From contig JAWKSK010000001.1 of assembly GCA_041389145.1 (NCBI GenBank), forward strand, positions 27,668-91,667: a DNA stretch of 64,000 nt, given 5' to 3'. The notes under the pieces are model-generated. The model searched no databases, was not told the DNA's origin, and was given only the letters and a program-made list of their open reading frames with translations. Origin of the DNA: Patescibacteria group bacterium. GTDB lineage: Bacteria > Patescibacteriota > Kazan-3B-28. The translations under genes and the position numbers were made by a program. Shown piece by piece: positions 11,880 to 31,359 of the stretch (positions within the stretch are counted from its first letter, which is position 1; every line of letters starts with the position of its first letter).

Positions 11880-12659
11880 TTAGTAGAGGGCAATTCCCTC
11901 TTGGCGCATTAGTTTACGAGATTCTTTATAATTAGGAATAGTTTCGGCAACTAGTTTCCAGAACTTTGGCGAGTGATTGAATTCCTGAAGATGACAGATT
12001 TCATGAACTACCAAATAGTCGACAAGACTGGGTGGCAGGAAGGCAACCCGATAGTTAAAGGATAACACTTTAGTAGCAGAACAACTCCCCCATTGAGTTT
12101 TGGTGTTGTTAATTCTGATCCTGGCATAACGGAACTGATAGTGATCATTGAAATACTCTACCCGCCGGGTTACCAACCTTAGGGCTGCTTCTTTATATGA
12201 AGCATAACTTTTCTTGTCATCGACATGTTGGGTGGAGGTTCTAGATTTGGCATAGGTTTCTTGCTGTTTTTGGATCCAGTCGGCTTTTTCTGCCACAAAT
12301 TTATCGATATCAGATTTAGCTACTCGTTTTGGAGCAGATACATTTACGGAACCATCTGGTTTAACGGTAATACGAATGTGTTTAGAGTTACGATAGTGGC
12401 GAAGGTTGTATTTGGGTAAATCAATGAGGTCTTGTTTTTGACCCCTCCTCCAGCTTTTAATCTCGGCTTCTCGCTTAAGGGCTTCTGATTTAGTGTCATA
12501 TTGTTCACTAAAAACCAGTTCTACAGGTCTTCTAGAACGAGTGTACTTAGCACCAGCTTTGGTTTGATTGTGTTTGGCTATTCTAGCTTCAAGATTGTTA
12601 GTGCTACCTACATAGTAGGTATCATCTGCACATTTTAAGATGTAGACAAAGTAAGGCAT
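11880..12659 (-). CDS. Fusion protein: N-terminal GIY-YIG nuclease domain plus C-terminal YgjP/DUF45-type zinc metallohydrolase
   Basis: FVYILKCADDTYYVGSTNNLEARIAKHN..EAEIKSW (GIY-YIG), then WGSCS and HEICHLQEFNHSPKFW (HExxH, DUF45-like). Confidence 0.8.
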   Translation of the reverse strand: MPYFVYILKCADDTYYVGSTNNLEARIAKHNQTKAGAKYTRSRRPVELVFSEQYDTKSEALKREAEIKSWRRGQKQDLIDLPKYNLRHYRNSKHIRITVKPDGSVNVSAPKRVAKSDIDKFVAEKADWIQKQQETYAKSRTSTQHVDDKKSYASYKEAALRLVTRRVEYFNDHYQFRYARIRINNTKTQWGSCSATKVLSFNYRVAFLPPSLVDYLVVHEICHLQEFNHSPKFWKLVAETIPNYKESRKLMRQEGIALY

Positions 12660-20530: not shown

Positions 20531-20605
20531 TGGGGCGTAGCCAAGTGGTAAGGCAATCGGTTCTGGTCCGATGATGCGTAGGTTCGAATCCTTCCGCCCC
20601 AGCCA
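20531..20605 (+). tRNA. tRNA-Gln (anticodon CTG), CCA encoded
   Basis: Hand-folded cloverleaf: acceptor TGGGGCG/CGCCCCA, anticodon stem ATCGG/CCGAT, loop TTCTGGT, T-loop TTCGAAT, 3' GCCA. Confidence 0.9.
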
Positions 20606-20613
20606 AAAGCAAG

Positions 20614-20640
20614 AAATCCGCTATAGTAGCGGATTTTCTC
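20614..20640 (+). terminator. Terminator after tRNA-Gln
   Basis: AATCCGC-tatagta-GCGGATT followed by TTCTC. Confidence 0.6.
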
Positions 20641-20657
20641 GATGTTATAATGTAATC

Positions 20658-21104
20658 ATGAAGAATTTGTTTAAATTTATTTTTGTTGCAACCCCACTTG
20701 TTCTATTACATATACTTATCCCTTTCTATGTTACAGATTCAAGCGGGAGTCTCTTTGGTTTATCTATGCCTGGTTCTATATCTACAGTATTAACATTTAT
20801 TGTTTACCTCTTGTTGGCATTTCTCGTTTCTTTTTACCTTTTTAAATGGTTAAAACACAAGACCAATATCAGCAAGACTTACCCTAAAGCATGGTGGTTG
20901 CTCATGACTGGTTCTTTGATTATCGGGTTCTTATTAACGGCAATGACTAGCGGAGCTGCTCTTGCCTTGCTATTCTTTGGTGCAAGCGGAGCATCCACAT
21001 CAGCGTTATACTACTTTCTTATAATTATTGAGAGTTTATTGTTCCCAATTCAATTAGGAATTATTGGTGGTGCTTTCATTGCTTATAGGTCGAAGTCGAA
21101 TTGA
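20658..21104 (+). CDS. Hypothetical membrane protein
   Basis: 148 aa from the ATG at 20658 (MKNLFKFIFVATPL..). The longer ORF start at 20571 overlaps the tRNA. 4 TM helices. Confidence 0.65.
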   Translation: MKNLFKFIFVATPLVLLHILIPFYVTDSSGSLFGLSMPGSISTVLTFIVYLLLAFLVSFYLFKWLKHKTNISKTYPKAWWLLMTGSLIIGFLLTAMTSGAALALLFFGASGASTSALYYFLIIIESLLFPIQLGIIGGAFIAYRSKSN

Positions 21105-21129
21105 TGATTGATAAATAAATTCTTTCCTG

Positions 21130-21152
21130 ACTTCCTCAACCAGCCCCAGCCA
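21130..21152. repeat. 23-nt direct repeat ACTTCCTCAACCAGCCCCAGCCA, copy 1
   Basis: Identical to 21471-21493. Shares GCCCCAGCCAA and CTTCC with the 3' end of tRNA-Gln. Confidence 0.85.
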
Positions 21153-21159
21153 ATAAAAG

Positions 21160-21186
21160 TATCTGCTCTGAGAGCAGGTATTTTTA
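21160..21186 (+). terminator. Terminator after 20658-21104
   Basis: CTGCTC-tga-GAGCAG followed by GTATTTTT. Confidence 0.65.
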
Positions 21187-21230
21187 GTATAGGGGTGGAA
21201 GGATTAGAACTAGGAAAGTACACTTAAATC

Positions 21231-21452
21231 ATGAATGATGCGATTTTATTAGATTTGTTTTACAGCAATCCAGTTTTTATTATCGTTAGTGTCCTTGGCC
21301 TACCAATTTTAGGAGCTTACTTACTTTGGTATGGGAAGCGTAAGAAAATAGAAGTAGCTCAAGGATGGGGTAAGTTATTACTACTACTAGGCGGATTGGT
21401 AATCCTAATACATGTATTTACAAGACTTGCTTGGTTAACTGTATTTAGATAG
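21231..21452 (+). CDS. Small 2-TM membrane protein
   Basis: 73 aa, two hydrophobic helices. Confidence 0.55.
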   Translation: MNDAILLDLFYSNPVFIIVSVLGLPILGAYLLWYGKRKKIEVAQGWGKLLLLLGGLVILIHVFTRLAWLTVFR

Positions 21453-21470
21453 AGTTTCTAACTTCCTCAA

Positions 21471-21493
21471 CCAGCCCCAGCCAGTAATTGAAA
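21471..21493. repeat. 23-nt direct repeat, copy 2
   Basis: Identical to 21130-21152. Confidence 0.85.
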
Positions 21494-21499
21494 AGCCCC

Positions 21500-21533
21500 A
21501 CCATATAGGTAGGGCTTGTTGAGCTATGAAACG
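21500..21533 (-). terminator. Terminator after 21539-22456 (family shared with 24017-24050)
   Basis: Minus strand AAGCCCTACC-tatat-GGTGGGGCTT followed by TTC. The single non-WC pair is G-U on the minus strand but C-A on the plus strand. Confidence 0.7.
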
Positions 21534-21538
21534 TACAG

Positions 21539-22456
21539 TTACTTCTGATTCAAGTGGTCAGAAGCAATTCCGATGATAAGGGCCAGATCATCAAGTGTGT
21601 TCGCTGTGCTTGTTTCTCCAGCAGCCCTTTCTCGAACAGCTGCCTCATTGATCTGACTCAAAATACCCCAGTTTGGATCTCTTGCCTTTTTCAGAACAAC
21701 TCTGGATGGGTTATTCTCCATGAGATGGTCCATGAGATCATTCCTAAGATCTCGCATTGAGAATAAACCCGCCTTGAGTTTGAGCACTTCCATCCAACCT
21801 ACGATAATTGGACGATCGATCCTCCATCCCGGAAGGGATTGAGTTAAACTTGATTCGAGTTCCAAGTATCTATCAATTGACTCTATCTGACTGTAAAATT
21901 TATATCCAATCACCCAGTCACTGCATTGACGCATGAGCACCGATGAACCGGCATGCCGATGACGTCTGATAAGTTCCATGATTGCAGATGCCTTATGGCA
22001 CATCATGGACGAAAACGTTCTGTTGCCCCAATATGTGTTGTGGACGTAAGAACCAAATCTCCAGTAGATTTCATTCCCCATACAATTAGGACACATCAGA
22101 TCGTGTTTGATGACTAATGCCATCTCGAACTCATCCGGACTTCCCTTGAACCCACAGGTTTTACACTTGGGATTGCAATGTGCAGGAGAAAGGTAGAATA
22201 TTTCCGGGCGATACGACTCCCCTGCGAAAAGCCCTTGTGCTTCTGTTCGTCGAGGAACTGGTTTGTACTTGACCAAACCTATCGCCTTGAGAAAATCTTC
22301 CTCGTATACATCCTTCATTCTACCCATATCGGCGCGAATAAGGATTAGGGGGTACTGAACATCTTGGCCTCGAAAGTAGTAGTCTTCTGAGAAATCCGGG
22401 CCAAAACACCAGTCTACGCCAAATTTGGGGCGTTCGTGTAAAGGTTCATGGTCCAC
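21539..22456 (-). CDS. Hypothetical zinc-ribbon protein (GC-richer unit)
   Basis: 305 aa; GTG start 6 nt after AAGGAGGTGA; CNPKCKTCGF..CPNCMG cysteine pairs. Confidence 0.75.
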   Translation of the reverse strand: MDHEPLHERPKFGVDWCFGPDFSEDYYFRGQDVQYPLILIRADMGRMKDVYEEDFLKAIGLVKYKPVPRRTEAQGLFAGESYRPEIFYLSPAHCNPKCKTCGFKGSPDEFEMALVIKHDLMCPNCMGNEIYWRFGSYVHNTYWGNRTFSSMMCHKASAIMELIRRHRHAGSSVLMRQCSDWVIGYKFYSQIESIDRYLELESSLTQSLPGWRIDRPIIVGWMEVLKLKAGLFSMRDLRNDLMDHLMENNPSRVVLKKARDPNWGILSQINEAAVRERAAGETSTANTLDDLALIIGIASDHLNQK

Positions 22457-24016: not shown

Positions 24017-24050
24017 AGAAAAGCCCCCGCATATAGCGAGGGCTTGTTGA
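24017..24050 (-). terminator. Terminator after 24068-25189, homologous to 21500-21533
   Basis: Minus strand AAGCCCTCGC-tatat-GCGGGGGCTT followed by TTTC. Two compensatory base-pair changes relative to the other copy. Confidence 0.7.
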
Positions 24051-24067
24051 GTTGTGAGTTGTTGAGA

Positions 24068-25189
24068 TTAGGTTCTAGGACCTCCATTCATGCACTGCTT
24101 CAGAGCATCCAGGATGCCGTCTTCAACTACTCCGGTCTCCTCCAGGTTGACCAGAGGGGTAAGCTCGGGGTCCTTCTCGGCGAGGAATTCGAGGAGACGA
24201 ACCTTGATATCTTTGAGCTGGTCAGAGATTTCATCCAACTTCTCATGCTCGAAGCGTGAGAGTTCCTGGCGAGTGTAGTCGATCCTCCTGAACTCTTCGC
24301 AGAGCTTGTAGGGCTCACCGCGAGTGTCAGTGAACATTTCCGCGAGTCGCCGGACCTTCTGGAATACCTCATTCGCAGCAAGGTACAGCTTGCGGAAGGC
24401 ATCAAGCTCCGAATGATCTTTTACCACGACCTTGAAGTGTCGTGTGGATTTGTAATCGACCTGAACCACCCGCTGCTCCACCACTTCCCTCAGCTCTGGA
24501 TCGTAGCAGAGGTAGGGGTCCCTACCTGATACCTGAACCCGGTCACTGAGAGTGGAGAGGGTTTCTCCTGAAATGCGAGTAGCGAACTTGATGAACGCAT
24601 ACTCGCGGTTGTTAACCTCGAAGTTGGTCGCTTCACCGATGACCATGTCACTCCCTGCCATCGGTGCATCGAACCCTAGACCAATTTCGTCCAGGTAGTA
24701 ATAGCCTCCGTAGCTGGGCTTCACAACCCCCGGAGTGCATATACAGAACGACGACTTGATCTGTTCGTCGAGGTAGAAAATGTCCTTCAGACCCCCGACG
24801 AGAACAGGTAACAGGTCTGCCGTGGTAGCCACGGAATCGTTGCCCACCTTGTAGTACCCCATCAGGGGAACCACCAGACCGTCAATCCATCTCAAGGTGC
24901 TGAGGTCAACCTCAACGCTCTCGAACCTGAATTCACTGCTCTGCCCAATCCAGAAACGATAGATCTCCATAAAGAAGATCAGTTCTGAGAAGTGGGTGTT
25001 GACGTCGTAGCCGATCTCTACCGCTATTCTGCGGAATCTAGCGCCCTTACGGACGATAGTCTTGGTGGAACGCATGATGACAGCCATGACAATGGCCTCA
25101 AATCCAGCGTTGTGCTTGATTCCAACCTCAATCATCCTGATGAGTCTAGGAGTCAGTACATCCTTAGGATTAAAGGATCTTGAAGACAT
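24068..25189 (-). CDS. Hypothetical protein (GC-richer unit)
   Basis: 373 aa; SD GGAGGTGG; own promoter and terminator; no recognisable motif. Confidence 0.75.
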   Translation of the reverse strand: MSSRSFNPKDVLTPRLIRMIEVGIKHNAGFEAIVMAVIMRSTKTIVRKGARFRRIAVEIGYDVNTHFSELIFFMEIYRFWIGQSSEFRFESVEVDLSTLRWIDGLVVPLMGYYKVGNDSVATTADLLPVLVGGLKDIFYLDEQIKSSFCICTPGVVKPSYGGYYYLDEIGLGFDAPMAGSDMVIGEATNFEVNNREYAFIKFATRISGETLSTLSDRVQVSGRDPYLCYDPELREVVEQRVVQVDYKSTRHFKVVVKDHSELDAFRKLYLAANEVFQKVRRLAEMFTDTRGEPYKLCEEFRRIDYTRQELSRFEHEKLDEISDQLKDIKVRLLEFLAEKDPELTPLVNLEETGVVEDGILDALKQCMNGGPRT

Positions 25190-25371: not shown

Positions 25372-26508
25372 CTAACTCCTTCCGAGCGAATGGCGGTATA
25401 TTTCTTCTACCTCCTTAGCCATATTCTTGGCCGAAAACTTTCGAAGAGTTTCTGCGTAATGACTAACAATCTTCTTCTGAAGCTTCTTATCATTTAGGAG
25501 CTTTAGCATGGTAGCGCTAAGGTTTTTAACGTTCCCTGATTCAAATAGTAGTCCATTGTAGTTATCGGTGATTATTTCTGGGATACCCCCTACCCGACTA
25601 GCAATAATTGGGACTTGTGCCCGCATGGCTTCAAGGATAGATATTCCAAAGGCTTCAGAACGGGATGGAAGGATAAATAGATCCATACTAAATAGAGCTG
25701 TGTTTACATCTGCCAATGCACCTGCAAATCTCACTGAATCTTTTATATCAAGTTTTTTAACAAGGTTTTGAAGTTCTCTCAGTCGCTCCCCTTTTCCAAT
25801 AATCAGTAGTTTAGTGTTGGGCCATTTGGTGTGCATGTTGGCAAAAGCTTTTATAAGTACATCGGTATCCTTTTGTTTGTTTAAAGACCCAATGGTACCA
25901 ACTAGTAGATCCCTTGGTGATACATCCAAACTGGCACGATACTTTTTGATTGCTACTTCACTTGGCTTGGACTTGAGTGAATCAATTCCATTGTGAATAA
26001 TTGAAACTTTATCTGGTTTAGTGATACCTGAGCTGACCAAGAAAGTTCTTACAGAATCACTAACTGCAATAGTGTGATTGGTGAGACGATCCAACACTTT
26101 CATTGCCCGTAGATGAGTCCAGTGGAGAACGGGATTATTGAGTTTAAAGTTATCAGTATAGGTGTGTTCGGTATGGATATTGATTAAAGACAATCCACGG
26201 CTTGCTACTCTCCCCAATAAACCTGCTCTTTGACCATGAGTGTGGACAATATCTGGTTCATACTTTTGTAATAGTTTATGAATCGCTGAAGAAGCAGAGA
26301 GATCCGTCATCCCTTGCATGGGAACGGTGAATACTGGCACTTTCAGCTTCTTTAGCTCATCAACTAAATCGCCTTCGGGAAGGATAACAGAAACAACAAA
26401 CTGAGAACGGTCGATATGCGATAACAGAGCCAATAAATGTCTTGGGGCGCCGGTTAAAGAGCTGTCGGCGATGATTTCAAATACACTGATTTTAGATGTT
26501 CTTGGCAT
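25372..26508 (-). CDS. GT4-family glycosyltransferase
   Basis: 379 aa from the ATG at 26508 (MPRTSKISVFEII..). C-terminal E..FGISILEAMRAQVPIIASRVGGIPEII motif. The upstream 107 codons of the ORF overlap the neighbouring gene. Confidence 0.88.
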   Translation of the reverse strand: MPRTSKISVFEIIADSSLTGAPRHLLALLSHIDRSQFVVSVILPEGDLVDELKKLKVPVFTVPMQGMTDLSASSAIHKLLQKYEPDIVHTHGQRAGLLGRVASRGLSLINIHTEHTYTDNFKLNNPVLHWTHLRAMKVLDRLTNHTIAVSDSVRTFLVSSGITKPDKVSIIHNGIDSLKSKPSEVAIKKYRASLDVSPRDLLVGTIGSLNKQKDTDVLIKAFANMHTKWPNTKLLIIGKGERLRELQNLVKKLDIKDSVRFAGALADVNTALFSMDLFILPSRSEAFGISILEAMRAQVPIIASRVGGIPEIITDNYNGLLFESGNVKNLSATMLKLLNDKKLQKKIVSHYAETLRKFSAKNMAKEVEEIYRHSLGRS

Positions 26509-26527
26509 GACTTCATTATAACATTTT

Positions 26528-26557
26528 GAAAATAAAAAACGGCCCAGAAACTGAGCC
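26528..26557 (-). terminator. Terminator after 26582-26893
   Basis: Minus strand GGCTCAG-ttt-CTGGGCC followed by GTTTTTTATTTT. The wobble pair is valid only on the minus strand. Confidence 0.75.
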
Positions 26558-26581
26558 ATTTGGAATGGATTAGACCGGTGC

Positions 26582-26893
26582 CTAACCAGGGCAGATTCGT
26601 GGGAGAAACCGACTGAAGCGGCCAGGTTCTTTGCTGCTATCAGCATCCCTCTCCTTCTGGTATTTATCACGGGGTTTACCGCTCCCAAAAATGCGAGAAT
26701 CCTCATGGATTCTTGTGATACAGTCTGGAATTGGATTGAGCCCATCAAAGGGAACGAATTCGATGATAACACAACCAGTCTCGTTGCAGTAACCACACGG
26801 AAATCCAAAATGATCAGGGAATGATCCATCTTGTGTTATTCCTGTACCGTTGCATTTGAAACACACAGCACTGACAGTGCGGGTTCGATACAT
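26582..26893 (-). CDS. Small DnaJ-type zinc-finger-like protein (array module 5)
   Basis: 103 aa; CFKCNGTG (CxxCxGxG) and CGYCNETG; SD GGAGGG. Confidence 0.7.
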   Translation of the reverse strand: MYRTRTVSAVCFKCNGTGITQDGSFPDHFGFPCGYCNETGCVIIEFVPFDGLNPIPDCITRIHEDSRIFGSGKPRDKYQKERDADSSKEPGRFSRFLPRICPG

Positions 26894-26963
26894 ATTGCCC
26901 TCCAGGGTTCATTGATATCTGAATGTCAGACCACCTGGGTATATCCTCAGGAATTCAGGGGAA

Positions 26964-26992
26964 GTATATGGCTTGATGTGGCAAAATGTCAA
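26964..26992 (-). promoter_or_regulatory. Promoter for 26582-26893
   Basis: Minus strand TTGACA-N17-ATATAC. Confidence 0.55.
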
Positions 26993-27071
26993 ATCTAGTA
27001 TAGAAAAAACGCCCATTCCTTGATGCAATCGCAGTTTGGGCATTAGTGTTTCTGACAGGAAGTCTGGGATG

Positions 27072-27419
27072 TTAGTCGCAAGGCGGACAGCAAGGAAGTG
27101 TGACGGGTTCGTAGAAAGAATCACCATCATATTTTCCTTTATCACGACCCTCCCAATCCAAATTTTCTTTCATTCTCCGATTTATGTCCCCACAAAGCAG
27201 GCGGACATTGTTGGCACCGTACTTGTCCGAGAGTTCCTCAAGAGTGCAACCCATCAGTTGATCCATCTGCATGCGATCGACCATATTGATGTCAGGTATA
27301 TTGTCGACCATTTCTCGGTTAATGATACCTGATTTCATCAACGACTCGATAATACCGTTAGGGATAAATTCCACCTTTTCATCTTTGTTTAAACGAAGTT
27401 GCCTATCATAATCGATCAC
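27072..27419 (-). CDS. Small protein with a sigma70-region-4-like HTH pattern (array module 4)
   Basis: 115 aa; GTG start 7 nt after TAGGAGG. CTLEELSDKYGANNVRLLCGDINRRMKE parallels TLEEIG..FGVTRERIRQIE.KA. Cys-rich C-terminus LPCCPPCD. Confidence 0.65.
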   Translation of the reverse strand: MIDYDRQLRLNKDEKVEFIPNGIIESLMKSGIINREMVDNIPDINMVDRMQMDQLMGCTLEELSDKYGANNVRLLCGDINRRMKENLDWEGRDKGKYDGDSFYEPVTLPCCPPCD

Positions 27420-27507: not shown

Positions 27508-27537
27508 ATACTACCTTCAAAATACCGTGGGTGTCAA
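27508..27537 (-). promoter_or_regulatory. Promoter for 27072-27419
   Basis: Minus strand TTGACA-N18-TAGTAT, with the mini-hairpin CTCCT-ttac-AGGAG plus an AT tract just upstream. Confidence 0.6.
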
Positions 27538-27570
27538 ATTAAAATTAGCTCCTGTAAAGGAGATTTAGCT

Positions 27571-27608
27571 GGTGGCATCTTAGATGAGGTTGGAACTTAT
27601 CTAAGAGA
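27571..27608. repeat. Array spacer repeat, copy A (variant)
   Basis: GGTGG--CATCTTAGATGAGGTTGGAACTTATCTAAGAG; the palindrome core is 27579-27605. Confidence 0.9.
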
Positions 27609-27615
27609 GTTTGGG

Positions 27616-27669
27616 TATAAAAATAACCTCCTGGCATCTACCCGTATTTCAGGGTGACACCGGGAGGTT
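27616..27669 (-). terminator. Terminator after 27694-28089
   Basis: Minus strand AACCTCCCGG..(25-nt loop)..CCAGGAGGTT followed by ATTTTTATA. Confidence 0.65.
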
Positions 27670-27693
27670 TCTTCTGAATGCGATCCCTTCGGT

Positions 27694-28089
27694 TTAGACG
27701 AGCTCACACATCGCTTGGAAGAGGATCTGTTTGATCTGCTTACCCTTAGCACCAGAGTAAGCCTTTCCCAGTTCCTTGAGAGAAGGGGGCGGACTCAGTT
27801 TGGTAAGGCGGGCAGACAGAGCTGTTACCTCTCTGTCGGCTTCTTCGTATGCCTCAAACGCATAGATGAGGTCTTCTAGGTTGGTTGCTGAATTAGCAAG
27901 TTCACCTATTACCAAGATGAAGTCTTCATCCTTCTTGTCCCACTCCAAGTACAGATCCTTCCAGCTGGAAAAACCGTTTATACCGGGAAAATCCTTAGGC
28001 AAGTACTCGTGTGTGGCGAAGTAGAGCTTGACCGCAGTTGCTACTCCGACTGCTGCCACAGTAACTTCTGGATTATTACGTTCTGACAT
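27694..28089 (-). CDS. Hypothetical protein (array module 3)
   Basis: 131 aa; SD AAGGAG 5 nt before the ATG; own promoter and terminator. Confidence 0.7.
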   Translation of the reverse strand: MSERNNPEVTVAAVGVATAVKLYFATHEYLPKDFPGINGFSSWKDLYLEWDKKDEDFILVIGELANSATNLEDLIYAFEAYEEADREVTALSARLTKLSPPPSLKELGKAYSGAKGKQIKQILFQAMCELV

Positions 28090-28145
28090 CCATACTCCTT
28101 TATAAAGAACTCCACAGAGCCCCTTGTGGTAAATTGACTAGGTAT

Positions 28146-28175
28146 ATAGTAGTTCCAAATATCCGCAAGTGTCAA
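28146..28175 (-). promoter_or_regulatory. Promoter for 27694-28089
   Basis: Minus strand TTGACA-N18-TACTAT. Confidence 0.6.
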
Positions 28176-28208
28176 ATAAAAATATAGTCTCACAAAGGTG
28201 ATTTAGCT

Positions 28209-28250
28209 GGTGGAGCATCTTAGATGAAGTTGGAACTTATCTAAGAGTGA
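28209..28250. repeat. Array spacer repeat, copy B
   Basis: GGTGGAGCATCTTAGATGAAGTTGGAACTTATCTAAGAGTGA; palindrome core 28219-28245; identical to copy C. Confidence 0.95.
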
Positions 28251-28262
28251 ATAGGTTAGATT

Positions 28263-28297
28263 TTAAAATAAAAAAGGTCGGAATTTCACCGACCTTT
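28263..28297 (-). terminator. Terminator after 28336-29058
   Basis: Minus strand AAAGGTCGG-tgaaatt-CCGACCTTT followed by TTTATTTTAAAA. Confidence 0.85.
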
Positions 28298-28335
28298 GCC
28301 CTATGATCCGGGCGGAATTGTTATCAGGGGAAACT

Positions 28336-29058
28336 TCAGTTAACCTCAAGACGAACCAAAAAGGGGTCCTCCTGGAAGGGGAAACCTTGATTGTATGCGA
28401 TTACGTAGTTACCAGGCGTAACCCACAGAGTAGATGTGCCGAGATACCCTTTATCGTGATGCTCTCTCTCGTAATCAGGAACGGCGTGGAACTTAGCGTA
28501 GACCCCACTTGGTCGTCCTGACTCATCCTCTCGAAAGATGATGGCACAGGAGTTGTTGCTGTAGGCCAAGTTATCCACTGTCGAGAAGCCATTGAAGTAG
28601 AAGGTCAACAGACAGCCTCTGACCTCTACTGTGGGGACCTTCTCAATATCATAGCTGAAGTCCCACATTGAGATCCAGCTTGCCATCTGATCTGCTCTCT
28701 CCAGGTCTTCGTTAAGGCTGGGGAGCCTTGTGATTGTGGTCTGGGGATAAGAAGAGCAGATGTAAACGTCCGGGAACAAGTCCGAAATGAGACCTAGACC
28801 TGACAGCACCTCCACAACCATTGGGTCCTGTTGTTCGATTGTCTGATCGACGTAAAGCCAGGGTGGGGTTGGTGGGTATCTGTAGAGATCCCAGAACTTC
28901 TCGTAGTCCAACTGATCACTCTTGTTTGTGATAGTAAGACTGAAATTCAGGAGATCGCCCCCGTCTCCCTCTTCTTCGGCTGAAGCCACGGAGGTGCAGA
29001 GGGGAATGCTGAGCATAGCAAGCAGCAACCACAGTGCCACTCTAACGATGTGTTTCAT
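28336..29058 (-). CDS. Secreted hypothetical protein (array module 2)
   Basis: 240 aa from the ATG at 29058 (SD GGGAG). Signal peptide MKHIVRVALWLLLAMLSIPLCTSVASA. The ORF-track start at 29082 lacks an SD. Confidence 0.75.
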   Translation of the reverse strand: MKHIVRVALWLLLAMLSIPLCTSVASAEEEGDGGDLLNFSLTITNKSDQLDYEKFWDLYRYPPTPPWLYVDQTIEQQDPMVVEVLSGLGLISDLFPDVYICSSYPQTTITRLPSLNEDLERADQMASWISMWDFSYDIEKVPTVEVRGCLLTFYFNGFSTVDNLAYSNNSCAIIFREDESGRPSGVYAKFHAVPDYEREHHDKGYLGTSTLWVTPGNYVIAYNQGFPFQEDPFLVRLEVN

Positions 29059-29135
29059 AGTTTTCTCCCTGTAGAAGAGCATTGTTGCTTAGAAAGGACT
29101 AAGCCACCCGTATTTTGGATTTCGGGAATTAATTA

Positions 29136-29164
29136 TATATTACTTTTATTTACTAAAAAGTCAA
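29136..29164 (-). promoter_or_regulatory. Promoter for 28336-29058
   Basis: Minus strand TTGACT-N17-AATATA. Confidence 0.5.
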
Positions 29165-29183
29165 TCCAGGACTGTATTTATAT

Positions 29184-29225
29184 GGTGGAGCATCTTAGAT
29201 GAAGTTGGAACTTATCTAAGAGTGA
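29184..29225. repeat. Array spacer repeat, copy C
   Basis: Identical 42 nt to copy B; palindrome core 29194-29220. Flanking AGTGAAyAGGTTwGATTTTA is also shared with B. Confidence 0.95.
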
Positions 29226-29242
29226 ACAGGTTTGATTTTAGT

Positions 29243-29274
29243 ATGAAAATGCCACCTGGAGAGTGCGTGGTGGC
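29243..29274 (-). terminator. Terminator after 29334-29828
   Basis: Minus strand GCCACC-acgcactctcca-GGTGGC followed by ATTTTCAT. Confidence 0.65.
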
Positions 29275-29333
29275 TACGCATAACATTGCTGTCTTGGTCA
29301 GGATGACCAACTCTTGATGAACACGCTGGGTGG

Positions 29334-29828
29334 TTAGTCGAAGTTCTCTGTTTCAGATTCAGCTTTCGCTTTCATCGACTCGTACTTGAGCCTGGACCTC
29401 TGCCTCATCTTGGCAACCCAAGAGCTGATTGTGAAACTCTTGGGCGGACCGAAGAGCCTTACTTCAGCAACCTCGGTTGTCCTGTGACCCTGCGTTGCCT
29501 CTATGACCAATACGTAATGGACGACGTCATCCGCAAGGTTTCGCAGACTCTCTCCGACGGTCATACCTTTGAGATCCGTGTAGCCGTCTGTGATCTCATC
29601 CTGGCTGACGGTCTCAATCCATTCACCTTTTTTGTTGAACAGGTAAATGGATCGGGAAAATGAGAAACATCCTACCTCTTCAATCTGGGGGATCATCTCC
29701 AGAAGCTGCTCGTCTATTCTCTGGTAGAGAAACTTGATCTGATAGCCCTGTAGTCCTTTCAAGAACGGCTCTATGAAAGGATGCCTGACGAGAAACTCGT
29801 CATTGTCGAAGTGATTTGTGCGACACAT
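29334..29828 (-). CDS. Hypothetical protein (array module 1)
   Basis: 164 aa from the ATG at 29828 (MCRTNHFDNDEF..), 7 nt after AAGGAG. The ORF-track start at 29966 lies upstream of the predicted -10 (29957-29962) and is therefore unlikely. Confidence 0.65.
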   Translation of the reverse strand: MCRTNHFDNDEFLVRHPFIEPFLKGLQGYQIKFLYQRIDEQLLEMIPQIEEVGCFSFSRSIYLFNKKGEWIETVSQDEITDGYTDLKGMTVGESLRNLADDVVHYVLVIEATQGHRTTEVAEVRLFGPPKSFTISSWVAKMRQRSRLKYESMKAKAESETENFD

Positions 29829-29956
29829 TTGATTCTCCTTTTCGCATTCCACGAAAACCGAGGCCAGCATTCCACTGTAGGCCTCAGAGAACAATCCAGA
29901 CGATTTGTTGAGATTTATCATCTGGAGAATAATAGAAAGAACAATTTTATGTGTGT

Positions 29957-29985
29957 ATTCTATCAAAACATACTATACTTGTCAA
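29957..29985 (-). promoter_or_regulatory. Promoter for 29334-29828
   Basis: Minus strand TTGACA-N17-TAGAAT, with the mini-hairpin CTCTG-tcc-CAGAG plus a T tract just upstream. Confidence 0.6.
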
Positions 29986-30016
29986 TCAAAAATTAGCTCT
30001 GGGACAGAGTTTTTAT

Positions 30017-30027
30017 GGTGGAGCATC
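30017..30027. repeat. Truncated copy D of the array repeat at the gltX boundary
   Basis: GGTGGAGCATC matches the left flank of copies B and C. The sequence diverges exactly where the palindrome would begin and continues into the gltX terminator hairpin TTGCAC..GTGCAA. Confidence 0.7.
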
Positions 30028-30054
30028 GGGGAATTGCACCAGATGTGCAAAAAC

Positions 30055-31359
30055 TTAATTTCCTATTTTAGCGAGTGCTAATTCTAACCGCGATAAGGAT
30101 TCTTCCTTACCCAATGCCTCTAATATCTCAACAGGACTTGGACTACCCATAAGACCAGAGAGTGCGACTCTAATTGGCCAGAATAAATCCCCTGGGTTTA
30201 AGGCTTCTGCATCAAGAGTGTGGTCTAAAATCTGTTGTAGTTTATCTTGATTCCAGTCTTGATGGTTTATTTCCTTTAGGACTGAATATCCTGCCTGGAG
30301 TCCTTTTTGGGTTTGGTCTGGACTGGATTTTTTAAAGACTAACATACTTGCTTCATAGTCTGGGAGGTCAAAGAAGAAGGAGATGAGCTCTGGAAGTTGA
30401 TCGAAATACTGTGCACGATCTTGAGTTAACTTAAGAGCAGATTCGAGTAACGTTTTATTTCCTTCAAATTGTTTAACAAATGGGTGGGCTAATTCCTGGT
30501 ACTCTGTAAATGGGAGCCTGGATAAGTAGTGATGATTGAGGTAATTGAGATGTTTTAGGTTAAATACTGCACCCCCTTTTTGGACACGTTCTAAAGCAAA
30601 CTTATCCACGAGTTCGTCTAGATTAAATATTTCTTGACCATCTTTATCGCTCCAACCAAGTTGGACTAGAAAGTTAATGAGAGCGGGTTGAATATAACCC
30701 TTATTGATGTATTCAGTTAAAGAGGTGTCACCGCTTCGCTTGCTCATCTTGGAACGATCTTCATTAAGGATTAGCGGCATATGAGCAAAGGTGGGAACTT
30801 CGGCACCCAATGCTTGGTATATCATGATGTGCTTTGGAGTGTTGCTTAAGTGATCTTCTCCTCTAATTACATGAGTAATACCCATAGTGATATCATCGAC
30901 AACATTGGCAAAGTGGAAGGTAGCGTTGCCATCTTTTTTCAAGAGCACAATATCGTCAAAGTCTTTGGAGTTGAATTCAACATCTCCACGGATTAGATCG
31001 TGAACTACAATTTTCTGATCATCGGTTGGGATACGTAAGTAGAGCCCCCCGTCTTGTTCGTAGGTAAGTCCAGCTGTTGTGAGTTGATCAGCGTGAGCCT
31101 TATAAATATCGGCTCGTTCGGATTGACGATAGGTTTCATCTGGATTTAAACCAAGCCAGTTGAGACCTTTAATAATATCTTCGTAATAGACCTCTTCACT
31201 ACGTTTGGTATCGGTGTCTTCTACACGCAGTACAAAAACACCATTTTGCTTGCGAGCAAAAAGATAGTTAAACAAAGCAGACCTAGCTCCTCCAATATGG
31301 AGGGGGCCGGTAGGACTTGGGGCAAATCTAACTTTAATTGCTTGTTTCATAGTTACCAC
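30055..31359 (-). CDS. gltX: Glutamate--tRNA ligase
   Basis: 434 aa; RFAPSPTGPLHIGGAR (HIGH) and KMSKRS (KMSKS). Confidence 0.95.
   Translation of the reverse strand: MVTMKQAIKVRFAPSPTGPLHIGGARSALFNYLFARKQNGVFVLRVEDTDTKRSEEVYYEDIIKGLNWLGLNPDETYRQSERADIYKAHADQLTTAGLTYEQDGGLYLRIPTDDQKIVVHDLIRGDVEFNSKDFDDIVLLKKDGNATFHFANVVDDITMGITHVIRGEDHLSNTPKHIMIYQALGAEVPTFAHMPLILNEDRSKMSKRSGDTSLTEYINKGYIQPALINFLVQLGWSDKDGQEIFNLDELVDKFALERVQKGGAVFNLKHLNYLNHHYLSRLPFTEYQELAHPFVKQFEGNKTLLESALKLTQDRAQYFDQLPELISFFFDLPDYEASMLVFKKSSPDQTQKGLQAGYSVLKEINHQDWNQDKLQQILDHTLDAEALNPGDLFWPIRVALSGLMGSPSPVEILEALGKEESLSRLELALAKIGN

Follow-up and report, generated by a model that had tools for sequence, protein, structure and literature searches.

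A 38-nt palindromic junction between single-gene cassettes in a Patescibacteria genome and its link to the tmRNA 3' end

Members of the Candidate Phyla Radiation (CPR)/Patescibacteria have tiny genomes and depend on host cells, and how their strains gain and turn over specific genes is, to our knowledge, poorly understood. Herein we analysed a 64,000-nt stretch of a Patescibacteria group bacterium of the Kazan-3B-28 lineage (contig JAWKSK010000001.1; hereafter the window), in which three cassettes, each carrying one open reading frame (ORF), follow the gltX gene and are separated by copies of a 27-bp imperfect palindrome, CTTAGATGAAGTTGGAACTTATCTAAG. An earlier reading of the bare sequence (the original prediction) had proposed that the palindrome is the crossover site of exchangeable gene cassettes. 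Comparison with related loci indicates that the repeat indeed bounds discrete, exchangeable cassettes, one of which recurs in two arrays, but that the crossover probably lies beside the palindrome, in or at a 9-nt core shared with the 3' end of ssrA, the gene for transfer-messenger RNA (tmRNA). Neither this tmRNA link nor a parallel array behind a tRNA-Gln gene had been recognized in the original prediction.

Organisation of the array beside gltX

All the genes of the array region lie on the minus strand (Table 1). Read on this gene strand, each intergenic unit consists of the intrinsic terminator of the upstream gene, 12-20 conserved nt, the palindrome, the dinucleotide AT, the 9-nt core GCTCCACCA that accompanies every palindrome, a small hairpin plus T-run, and a sigma-70-like promoter. 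Palindrome, AT and core together form a universal 38-nt segment, which is common to 17 distinct junctions in at least five related genomes, and the orientation is uniform, with all 17 junctions and all of the cassette ORFs (100%) pointing the same way. The 64 kb of the window contain three copies of the 27-mer, all inside one 1.7-kb array, and the related loci likewise carry it in arrays only. Our search reproduced the positions and sequence of these copies as they had been described (two exact and one with a single substitution, all on the plus strand), and retrieved no match from 100 dinucleotide-preserving shuffles of the window. The two exact copies are embedded in an identical block, as predicted, although its length is 44 nt (28208-28251 = 29183-29226) and not 42. 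A promoter and terminator scan of the gene strand placed the palindrome between the terminator of one gene and the promoter of the next, in agreement with the original prediction, and the distance from palindrome edge to -35 box varies among the three window copies (41, 43 and 29 nt, or ~42-56 nt from the palindrome centre).

Table 1 Coordinates of the features in the window (unless another locus is named) that are discussed in the text.
Feature	Position	Strand	Details
gltX	30055-31359	-	Upstream neighbour of the array
First junction (attL-type)	30016-30040	-	25-nt ssrA 3' relic: GGTGCAATTCCCC (T-loop and T-stem 3' strand, 30028-30040), G-AT, core GCTCCACCA (30016-30024); no palindrome
Class c right flank	29957-30015	-	Small hairpin and T-run 29997-30009, CTCTGTCCCAGAG then CTAATTTTTG; cassette 1 promoter TTGACA-17-TAGAAT 29957-29985
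Cassette 1 cargo, 164-aa ORFan	29334-29828	-	Terminator hairpin 29251-29274
Junction C, 38-nt segment	29183-29220	-	Palindrome 29194-29220, AT 29192-29193, core 29183-29191; class II left flank 29221-29241; class b right flank and promoter 29137-29182
Cassette 2 cargo, ORFan (~240 aa)	28336-29082	-	Start probably 29058, after GGGAG ribosome-binding site; terminator 28273-28297
Junction B, 38-nt segment	28208-28245	-	Palindrome 28219-28245, AT 28217-28218, core 28208-28216; class a right flank and promoter 28146-28207
Cassette 3 cargo, 131-aa ORFan, R3B38_00315	27694-28089	-	Also in the ssrA-smpB array of L002
Junction A	27570-27605	-	Palindrome 27579-27605 (one substitution), AT 27577-27578, core with 2-nt deletion GCCACCA 27570-27576; hairpin 27549-27562 and T-run; promoter 27508-27537
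Conserved distal unit, no palindrome after it	26537-27419	-	115-aa ORF 27072-27419; promoter 26963-26992; 103-aa CxxC ORF 26582-26893; terminator 26537-26561
tRNA-Gln(ctg) array	20531-21483	+	tRNA 20531-20605; last 10 nt GCCCCAGCCA again at 21143-21152 and 21474-21483; ORFs 20639-21104 and 21231-21452 between junctions
tmRNA gene, L002	6699-7067		Rfam
tmRNA gene, L010	6163-6531		Rfam

Each cassette spans 0.4-1 kb and consists of its own promoter, one ORF and usually a terminator, which is missing from two cassettes of related loci (L001-3 and L002-2). The cargo genes are nearly all ORFans, the exceptions being a SET-domain protein (L002) and a weak match to 2'-5' RNA ligase (L001), and comparison of the cassette proteins with Pfam, PADLOC, PHROGs and PDB sequences returned no helix-turn-helix (HTH), recombinase, defence or phage signal. 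For the 164-aa ORF of cassette 1 there was no PADLOC or PHROG match, and a longer reading that contains it (29334-29966) had no Pfam match. The 131-aa protein of cassette 3 has only two homologues among 5.8 billion protein clusters; its gene shows a ratio of non-synonymous to synonymous substitution rates (dN/dS) of 0.32 and is thus a real gene. By eye, the cassette 2 protein has a hydrophobic N-terminus with the look of a secretion signal.

Turnover of cassettes between related loci

Further loci (designated L001 and so on) were recovered from ENA and Logan assemblies, anchored on the glycosyltransferase gene that lies beyond the array and on smpB; the glycosyltransferase relatives include 'candidate division Kazan' genomes. 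The palindrome was also present in three contigs of one JGI metagenome, and a search with two palindrome patterns through the GTDB representatives (one genome per species) and IMG/VR gave zero matches, so that the element seems confined to a narrow lineage, with a source that is not shown to be viral. The more distant smpB- or glycosyltransferase-anchored loci L009, L014, L016 and L020 contained neither arrays nor junctions. A gltX-type array (L005) and an ssrA-type array (L011) came from one metagenome assembly, and a single population therefore probably holds all three kinds of array that we describe, including the one behind tRNA-Gln.

The genes between the palindrome copies differ in related genomes, which is the outcome that the original prediction had asked to be looked for. 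The window and L004, whose glycosyltransferases are 87% identical, are collinear except at 27626-29978, with homology stopping at 29979 (the -35 box) and resuming at 27625. Within these limits the window carries three cassettes (164, ~240 and 131 aa) and L004 two unrelated ones (127 and 122 aa), the 164-aa gene being replaced by the 127-aa gene. In a second pair, L002 and L010, identity is 94-99% as far as the stop codon of smpB on one side and 10 nt beyond the end of ssrA on the other, and the arrays between these two points are entirely different (two cassettes in L002, four plus an extra gene in L010). The cargo can also recur at a different locus, since the 131-aa cassette of the window gltX array is found in the ssrA-smpB array of L002 at 84.6% nucleotide identity over 688 nt, and the limits of this identity are the two bounding junctions. 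Overall, 2 of the ~17 cassettes are common between the five arrays.

The flanks of the shared segment point to where these exchanges happen. Left flanks fall into two main classes (I and II) plus one outlier and right flanks into about four (a-d), and among 23 pairs of junctions that are alike in their left flanks, only 1 is alike in the right flank too. Left and right flanks thus assort independently, which places the exchange points inside the shared 38 nt. Two terminal junctions, in L003 (beside the glycosyltransferase gene) and L024-2, break directly after ...CTAAGATGC, and such truncated cores suggest strand exchange at the boundary of palindrome and core, as events at secondary sites would leave ends of this kind. 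Other copies are decaying (L002-2 and L004-1). Synonymous divergence (dS) between the window and L004 is 0.25 for gltX (30055-31350) and 1.40 for the GT4 glycosyltransferase (25372-26508), a more than five-fold difference across the array, so that the DNA on its two sides has different histories. Between genomes whose adjacent genes diverge this far, the 38-nt segment does not differ at all, whereas the lower of these rates predicts about ten substitutions; this identity, despite divergence of the flanks, implies that the segment is either constrained or continually exchanged.

Two contigs end within such repeats, L015 inside a palindrome (12474-12502) and L025 starting in a junction-like repeat (1-40). 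Assemblers thus appear to break there, and arrays of this kind are probably under-represented or under-assembled in metagenome-assembled genomes. In L025, whose glycosyltransferase is 65% identical, a small cassette upstream of the glycosyltransferase gene ends (560-640) with a terminator, a different perfect palindrome TTCCGAAC TTTCGGAA, and then ACA-ATCACCA. The start of this contig resembles its own palindrome region (...GTTCGGAA...GTGCACCA), and the two may represent a diverged junction family, of which there is one full instance only.

The tmRNA 3' end, the palindrome and the point of exchange

A fourth copy of the palindrome's flank, GGTGGAGCATC, occurs at 30017-30027 and breaks off where the palindrome would be expected to start. 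The original prediction had correctly seen this truncation at the island edge, which now has the look of an att-type hybrid junction, but had taken the neighbouring sequence for the gltX terminator. This neighbour is instead an ssrA 3' fragment, with GGGGAATTGCACC at 30028-30040 being the reverse complement of the T-loop and the T-stem 3' strand of a tmRNA gene. Full-length tmRNA genes were identified with the Rfam model RF00023 in L002 (147 bits, E 9e-60) and L010 (150 bits), where ssrA ends ...GGGGGTGCAATTCCCCCCA-GCTCCACCA (...CCCCCCA before the core) and is followed directly by a cassette promoter and then by an array with window-type junctions. As intact ssrA ends in the same core ahead of these arrays, the core adjoining each palindrome reproduces the tmRNA 3' end, its 9 nt being five acceptor 3'-strand bases plus ACCA. 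On the gene strand, the gltX-side copy reads GGTGCAATTCCCC-G-AT-GCTCCACCA, then TAAAAACTCTGTCCCAGAGC..., with the ssrA fragment starting 14 nt past the gltX stop codon. Aligned to the ssrA 3' ends of L010 and L002, it is identical to L010 from GGTGCAATT through the downstream flank except for 3 nt before the core, and its class c flank also lies directly behind intact ssrA in L010 and at the gltX-side junction of L004. These alignments indicate that the gltX-side copy is an attL-type junction on a relocated 25-nt fragment of the ssrA 3' end together with the native downstream flank. ARAGORN called no tmRNA in L002, where the Rfam model scores 147 bits, and annotation based on this program may miss the tmRNA genes of this lineage.

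A second array in the window follows tRNA-Gln and uses a different junction, in which a conserved 19-mer, TTTCYNACWTCCWYAACCA, stands before each repeat of the tRNA 3' end and a strong terminator hairpin (z -2 to -5) after it, with no palindrome. Behind the same tRNA, L004 (10700-12350) carries different cassettes (53 aa, NUDIX and 145 aa) and terminator classes that have been swapped between cassettes, and its homology with the window breaks exactly at the tRNA-Gln 3' end (20605). The platforms of the arrays are thus the ssrA 3' end, the relocated 25-nt ssrA fragment by gltX in the window, and tRNA-Gln, with the target genes themselves remaining intact (ssrA in L002 and L010 by Rfam, tRNA-Gln in the window). 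On this comparative evidence, the lineage appears habitually to stack integrase-less mini-cassettes at the 3' ends of tRNA and tmRNA genes. At 21192-21210 (~12205-12232 in L004), just past one of the tRNA-Gln terminator classes, the T-arm and acceptor 3' half of a tRNA are copied in reverse complement (GTTCTAATCCTTCCACCCC, minus strand); this may be what is left of a convergent tRNA gene that came with the flank.

The palindrome folds as single-stranded DNA into the described stem with one bulge, on both strands (-6.0 and -6.3 kcal/mol, z = -4.3 and -3.8). Given this retained fold, it may act in an attC-like, single-stranded mode. One could go further and regard the palindrome itself as the crossover, either as a dif-like tyrosine-recombinase core with 10-bp arms CTTAGATAAG / TTCATCTAAG around a 7-bp TTCCAAC or as an attC-like hairpin, with exchange running from palindrome to palindrome. 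The 10-7-10 architecture, as read from the sequence, would suit a tyrosine-recombinase core site, the hairpin, with its one extrahelical base, is stable as noted, and the internal junctions fit any breakpoint within the 38 nt. However, the array-proximal junctions are at odds with it: the intact ssrA genes that head arrays have no palindrome half and share with the junctions only the adjacent GCTCCACCA, and the gltX-side junction lacks a palindrome half as well. The match of these 9 nt and the downstream flank to the ssrA 3' end would also be left unexplained, all the copies are co-oriented (unlike those of pdif modules), and GTT/AAC sits at the tip of the hairpin and not at its base as in attC. 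The pattern of variation does not help this view either, since variation in the left arm is about double that in the core-proximal right arm, and changes are uncompensated: the 17 copies give 13 unpaired cells and a single compensatory one, a score that 79 of 500 shuffles equalled or exceeded. We consider a crossover within the palindrome to be quite improbable. The asymmetry of the arms, together with the invariant AT, fits instead a site for a sequence-specific protein that abuts the core.

A different possibility is that the palindrome serves gene expression, as an operator or upstream activating site or as a transcribed RNA element (3'-UTR stabiliser or small RNA). It is always intergenic, and in L001-3 and L002-2, where the terminator is missing, it would be transcribed as 3' untranslated region (UTR). 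Yet it usually follows an intrinsic terminator, and its variable spacing from the -35 box, which had rightly been held against a phase-locked operator, is compounded by the terminal junctions L002-1, L010-4 and L003, which retain the palindrome but lack a following promoter (16 nt separate the palindrome from the smpB stop codon in L002-1), and by the first junctions, which have a promoter and no palindrome. The proposal of a plus-strand RNA role, based on a G-U pair possible on that strand only, does not hold, as A9G in L010-4 wobble-pairs only on the opposite strand. More generally, the variants of the 9-18 pair (A9T, A9G, T18C) are uncompensated, wobble-compatible variants favour opposite strands, there is no covariation, and a search of the array against Rfam at permissive thresholds gave no meaningful family. 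A regulatory or RNA role as the explanation of the repeat thus seems very improbable.

Four further candidates were rejected. A tRNA-like T-arm reading of the palindrome would require a loop that is far too long, and both ARAGORN and Rfam were negative; a transposon with a 9-bp target-site duplication does not agree with cassettes that have no terminal inverted repeats; IS200/IS605- or REP (repetitive extragenic palindromic)-type hairpin elements do not agree with junctions that have one hairpin each, nor with the lack of dispersal; and dispersed palindromes of the REP/BIME (bacterial interspersed mosaic element) type do not agree with copies limited to arrays, in the window and in related loci.

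The interpretation that we favour, and hold to be somewhat likelier true than false, is that the cassettes are integrase-less single-gene units stacked at tRNA/tmRNA 3' ends and joined by att-type junctions, with the crossover in or at the core and the palindrome as a cassette-side protein-binding element. A circular cassette would carry palindrome-AT-GCTCCACCA-hairpin/T-run-promoter as its attP, whose 9-bp core would recombine with its identical counterpart at the ssrA 3' end or at any resident junction. Insertion would regenerate the tmRNA 3' end and terminator on one side and leave palindrome and core as the distal junction, and repeated insertion would build a head-to-tail array with its cassettes in the direction of the target gene. 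The palindrome, above all its core-proximal arm ...TTCATCTAAG-AT, would be the putative binding site of a recombinase supplied in trans, and strand exchange would begin immediately 3' of AT. The 9-10-nt identity with the target is too short to seed RecA recombination and typical of an att core, which supports an att-type junction. There are precedents for both parts of the scheme: a regenerated tRNA/tmRNA gene with direct fragments marks integrase-mediated islands, for which ssrA is the most enriched target (PMC4383910), and tandem accretion of integrase-less elements is known from the cis-mobilizable elements (CIMEs; PMC5704250).

Several observations weigh against this interpretation. No recombinase was found in the cassettes, among the Pfam-tested window ORFs or in the genes called on either side of the arrays of L002, L004 and L010 (the other window ORFs were judged housekeeping by eye only), and neither circular forms nor precise empty sites were observed. 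The identity block with the target gene is only 9-12 nt long, and displaced fragments of tRNA/tmRNA genes are usually ~20-50 nt. The palindrome array of the window adjoins a 25-nt ssrA fragment and not intact ssrA, and the tRNA-Gln junction operates without a palindrome, which is therefore not obligatory for such arrays. Finally, left classes I/II and right classes a-d run to the -35 box and are common to unrelated cassettes, so that homologous recombination could use them, and on the gltX side the first base that varies between the window and L004 is at the -35 box, not in the core.

These last points lead to the main alternative, in which the junction is a regulatory module (terminator tail, palindrome, pseudo-tDNA end, hairpin and -35) shuffled by RecA-type exchange, in the manner of the PeSL (stem-loop plus promoter) elements, with the palindrome having a local role as back-up terminator, insulator or protein roadblock. 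Conserved modules of ~100 nt that end at the -35 box and belong to few classes common to unrelated cassettes are what it would predict, each cassette has its own promoter and terminator like the ORFans flanked by PeSL (PMC2839356), the lack of a recombinase in the Pfam-tested window ORFs would need no explaining, and the five-fold dS difference across the array suggests frequent homologous replacement. We nevertheless think it unlikely, because the ssrA and tRNA-Gln junctions have only 9-10 nt in common with their targets, which is too little for RecA seeding, because the breakpoints are confined to the 38-nt segment though the left and right modules are equally long, because the truncated cores of L003 and L024-2 look like secondary-site integration, and because the orientation is 100% uniform.

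Building on the att-type interpretation, a bolder proposal, which we offer tentatively and which may well prove wrong, is that the lineage runs an integron-like capture platform, with tRNA/tmRNA 3' ends and the relocated ssrA fragment as 'attI', palindrome plus core as 'attC', and one chromosomal recombinase acting in trans, through which ORFan cassettes with their own promoters would be inserted, excised and reshuffled at several sites of the minimal genome.

Beyond the last palindrome, the window array ends in a distal unit that is conserved in L004 (dN/dS 0.36 and 0.88) and abuts the GT4 glycosyltransferase gene on the minus strand. The HTH label that had been given to its 115-aa product found no backing, as no Pfam, PDB-sequence, PHROG or PADLOC match was obtained and the AlphaFold2 model (pLDDT, the predicted local distance difference test, of 39) was unusable. 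The glycosyltransferase gene itself has a TATAAT-like box 6-7 nt before its ATG (window 26508-26540; L003 2795-2825; L004), which suggests a leaderless or very short-leader mRNA. Two further ORFans, of 373 aa (24068-25189) and 305 aa (21539-22456), gave no Pfam or PHROG match; the 373-aa gene lies in a locally GC-rich stretch (0.52 vs ~0.41), and a 372-aa gene occupies the same position beside the glycosyltransferase in L004-L007. A 40-nt terminator-like repeat, GAAAAGCCCC...GGGGCTTGTTGAG, occurs in two copies (85% identical) after the tRNA-Gln array (21490-21529) and after the DEAD-box helicase gene (24018-24057), and thus brackets the 305-aa ORFan and the helicase. At 355-2867, near the start of the window, ResIII/SNF2 helicase matches look split (283 aa) and adjoin a 380-aa ORF that gave no match; a fragmented restriction or defence helicase may lie here.

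Relation to known systems

In kind, the arrays are a case of site-specific accretion at tRNA/tmRNA genes, and what is new is their integron-like organisation, in which each cassette carries one gene and its own promoter, all cassettes point the same way, the palindromic junction is conserved, several platforms are used and no integrase was found in cis. Our literature searches returned no description of such arrays in Patescibacteria. They constitute a compact route of gene turnover, in which near-unique ORFan cassettes with their own promoters are swapped between close strains at three loci. If a recombinase does act in trans, this would be a gene-capture system convergent with integrons that uses a very small, defined 38-nt site, and this site would be a candidate engineering tool as well as a marker for the flexible gene pool of uncultured CPR in metagenomes.

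The closest parallels in target choice are the Islander-type tRNA/tmRNA islands, for which our comparison set included 'Traffic at the tmRNA gene', the ssrA islands of Dehalococcoides and the tycheposon-built islands of Prochlorococcus. In these, as here, units in direct orientation line up behind an intact target gene, with its 3' end repeated at the boundary of each unit (PMC4383910, PMC3146451, bioRxiv 10.1101/2020.12.28.424599), incoming DNA restores the 3' end and terminator (here, on the favoured scheme), ssrA is preferred, and the content differs between close strains. The present units differ in being single genes of 0.4-1 kb with no tyrosine integrase or mobility gene per unit, in their 9-12-nt identity block, and in the 27-bp palindrome that abuts the core, and one array stands on a relocated 25-nt ssrA fragment rather than on the gene. 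They also reach 4-5 units, whereas only 4 tandems of at least 3 are recorded among 3919 Islander islands. The CIMEs share with our cassettes that they are att-bounded and integrase-less (the cassettes hold no integration or transfer genes), rely (as ours would) on a recombinase from elsewhere and lie in tandem at the 3' end of a target (PMC5704250); however, they are decayed integrative and conjugative or integrative and mobilizable elements of several kb, while the cassettes described here are uniform promoter-ORF-terminator units with a highly conserved junction and no remnants of decay or pseudogenes. None of the three JGI metagenome contigs with the palindrome bears an integrase, and GTDB representatives and IMG/VR contained no contig with the palindrome.

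The PeSL of T4-type phages are conserved combinations of a stem-loop and a sigma-70 promoter that flank the ORFans of hyperplastic regions, where they mediate the exchange of modules (PMC2839356, PMC4122927). Our junctions differ in belonging to a cellular chromosome, in containing a copy of a tRNA/tmRNA 3' end, in forming arrays that start at such genes, and in having a palindrome that follows the terminator and is not itself the terminator. The original prediction had likened the repeat to pdif and attC sites in organisation and not in sequence, which is a fair description. Like dif and pdif, it is a site of ~28 bp with two arms and a central spacer that bounds small gene modules, but it shows no evident resemblance to the E. 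coli dif sequence. It departs from pdif in orientation, as pdif modules need inverted pairs (alternating XerC-XerD and XerD-XerC) and the copies here have one orientation only, and in that the putative crossover lies outside the palindrome.

Integrons have intI, with attI next to the first cassette, and attC sites with R''/L''-L'/R' boxes, in which crossover takes place at G|TT of GTTRRRY at the base of the hairpin. With integrons, including the clusters of attC sites lacking integron-integrases (CALINs), the present arrays have in common co-oriented and mostly ORFan cassettes, an imperfect palindrome with an extrahelical base, a boundary at the foot of the hairpin, a hybrid first junction with the platform site, and very high diversity. 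They differ in that the neighbour of the first cassette is gltX (window, L004) or ssrA (L002, L010), with no intI within the available flanks, and in that the boundary motif is AT|GCTCCACCA, with no RYYYAAC/GTTRRRY there and GTT/AAC at the hairpin tip only (no dedicated attC model was run). They differ further in that every cassette carries a promoter, the platform is a tRNA/tmRNA 3' end, and the palindrome is conserved as a sequence, without covariation.

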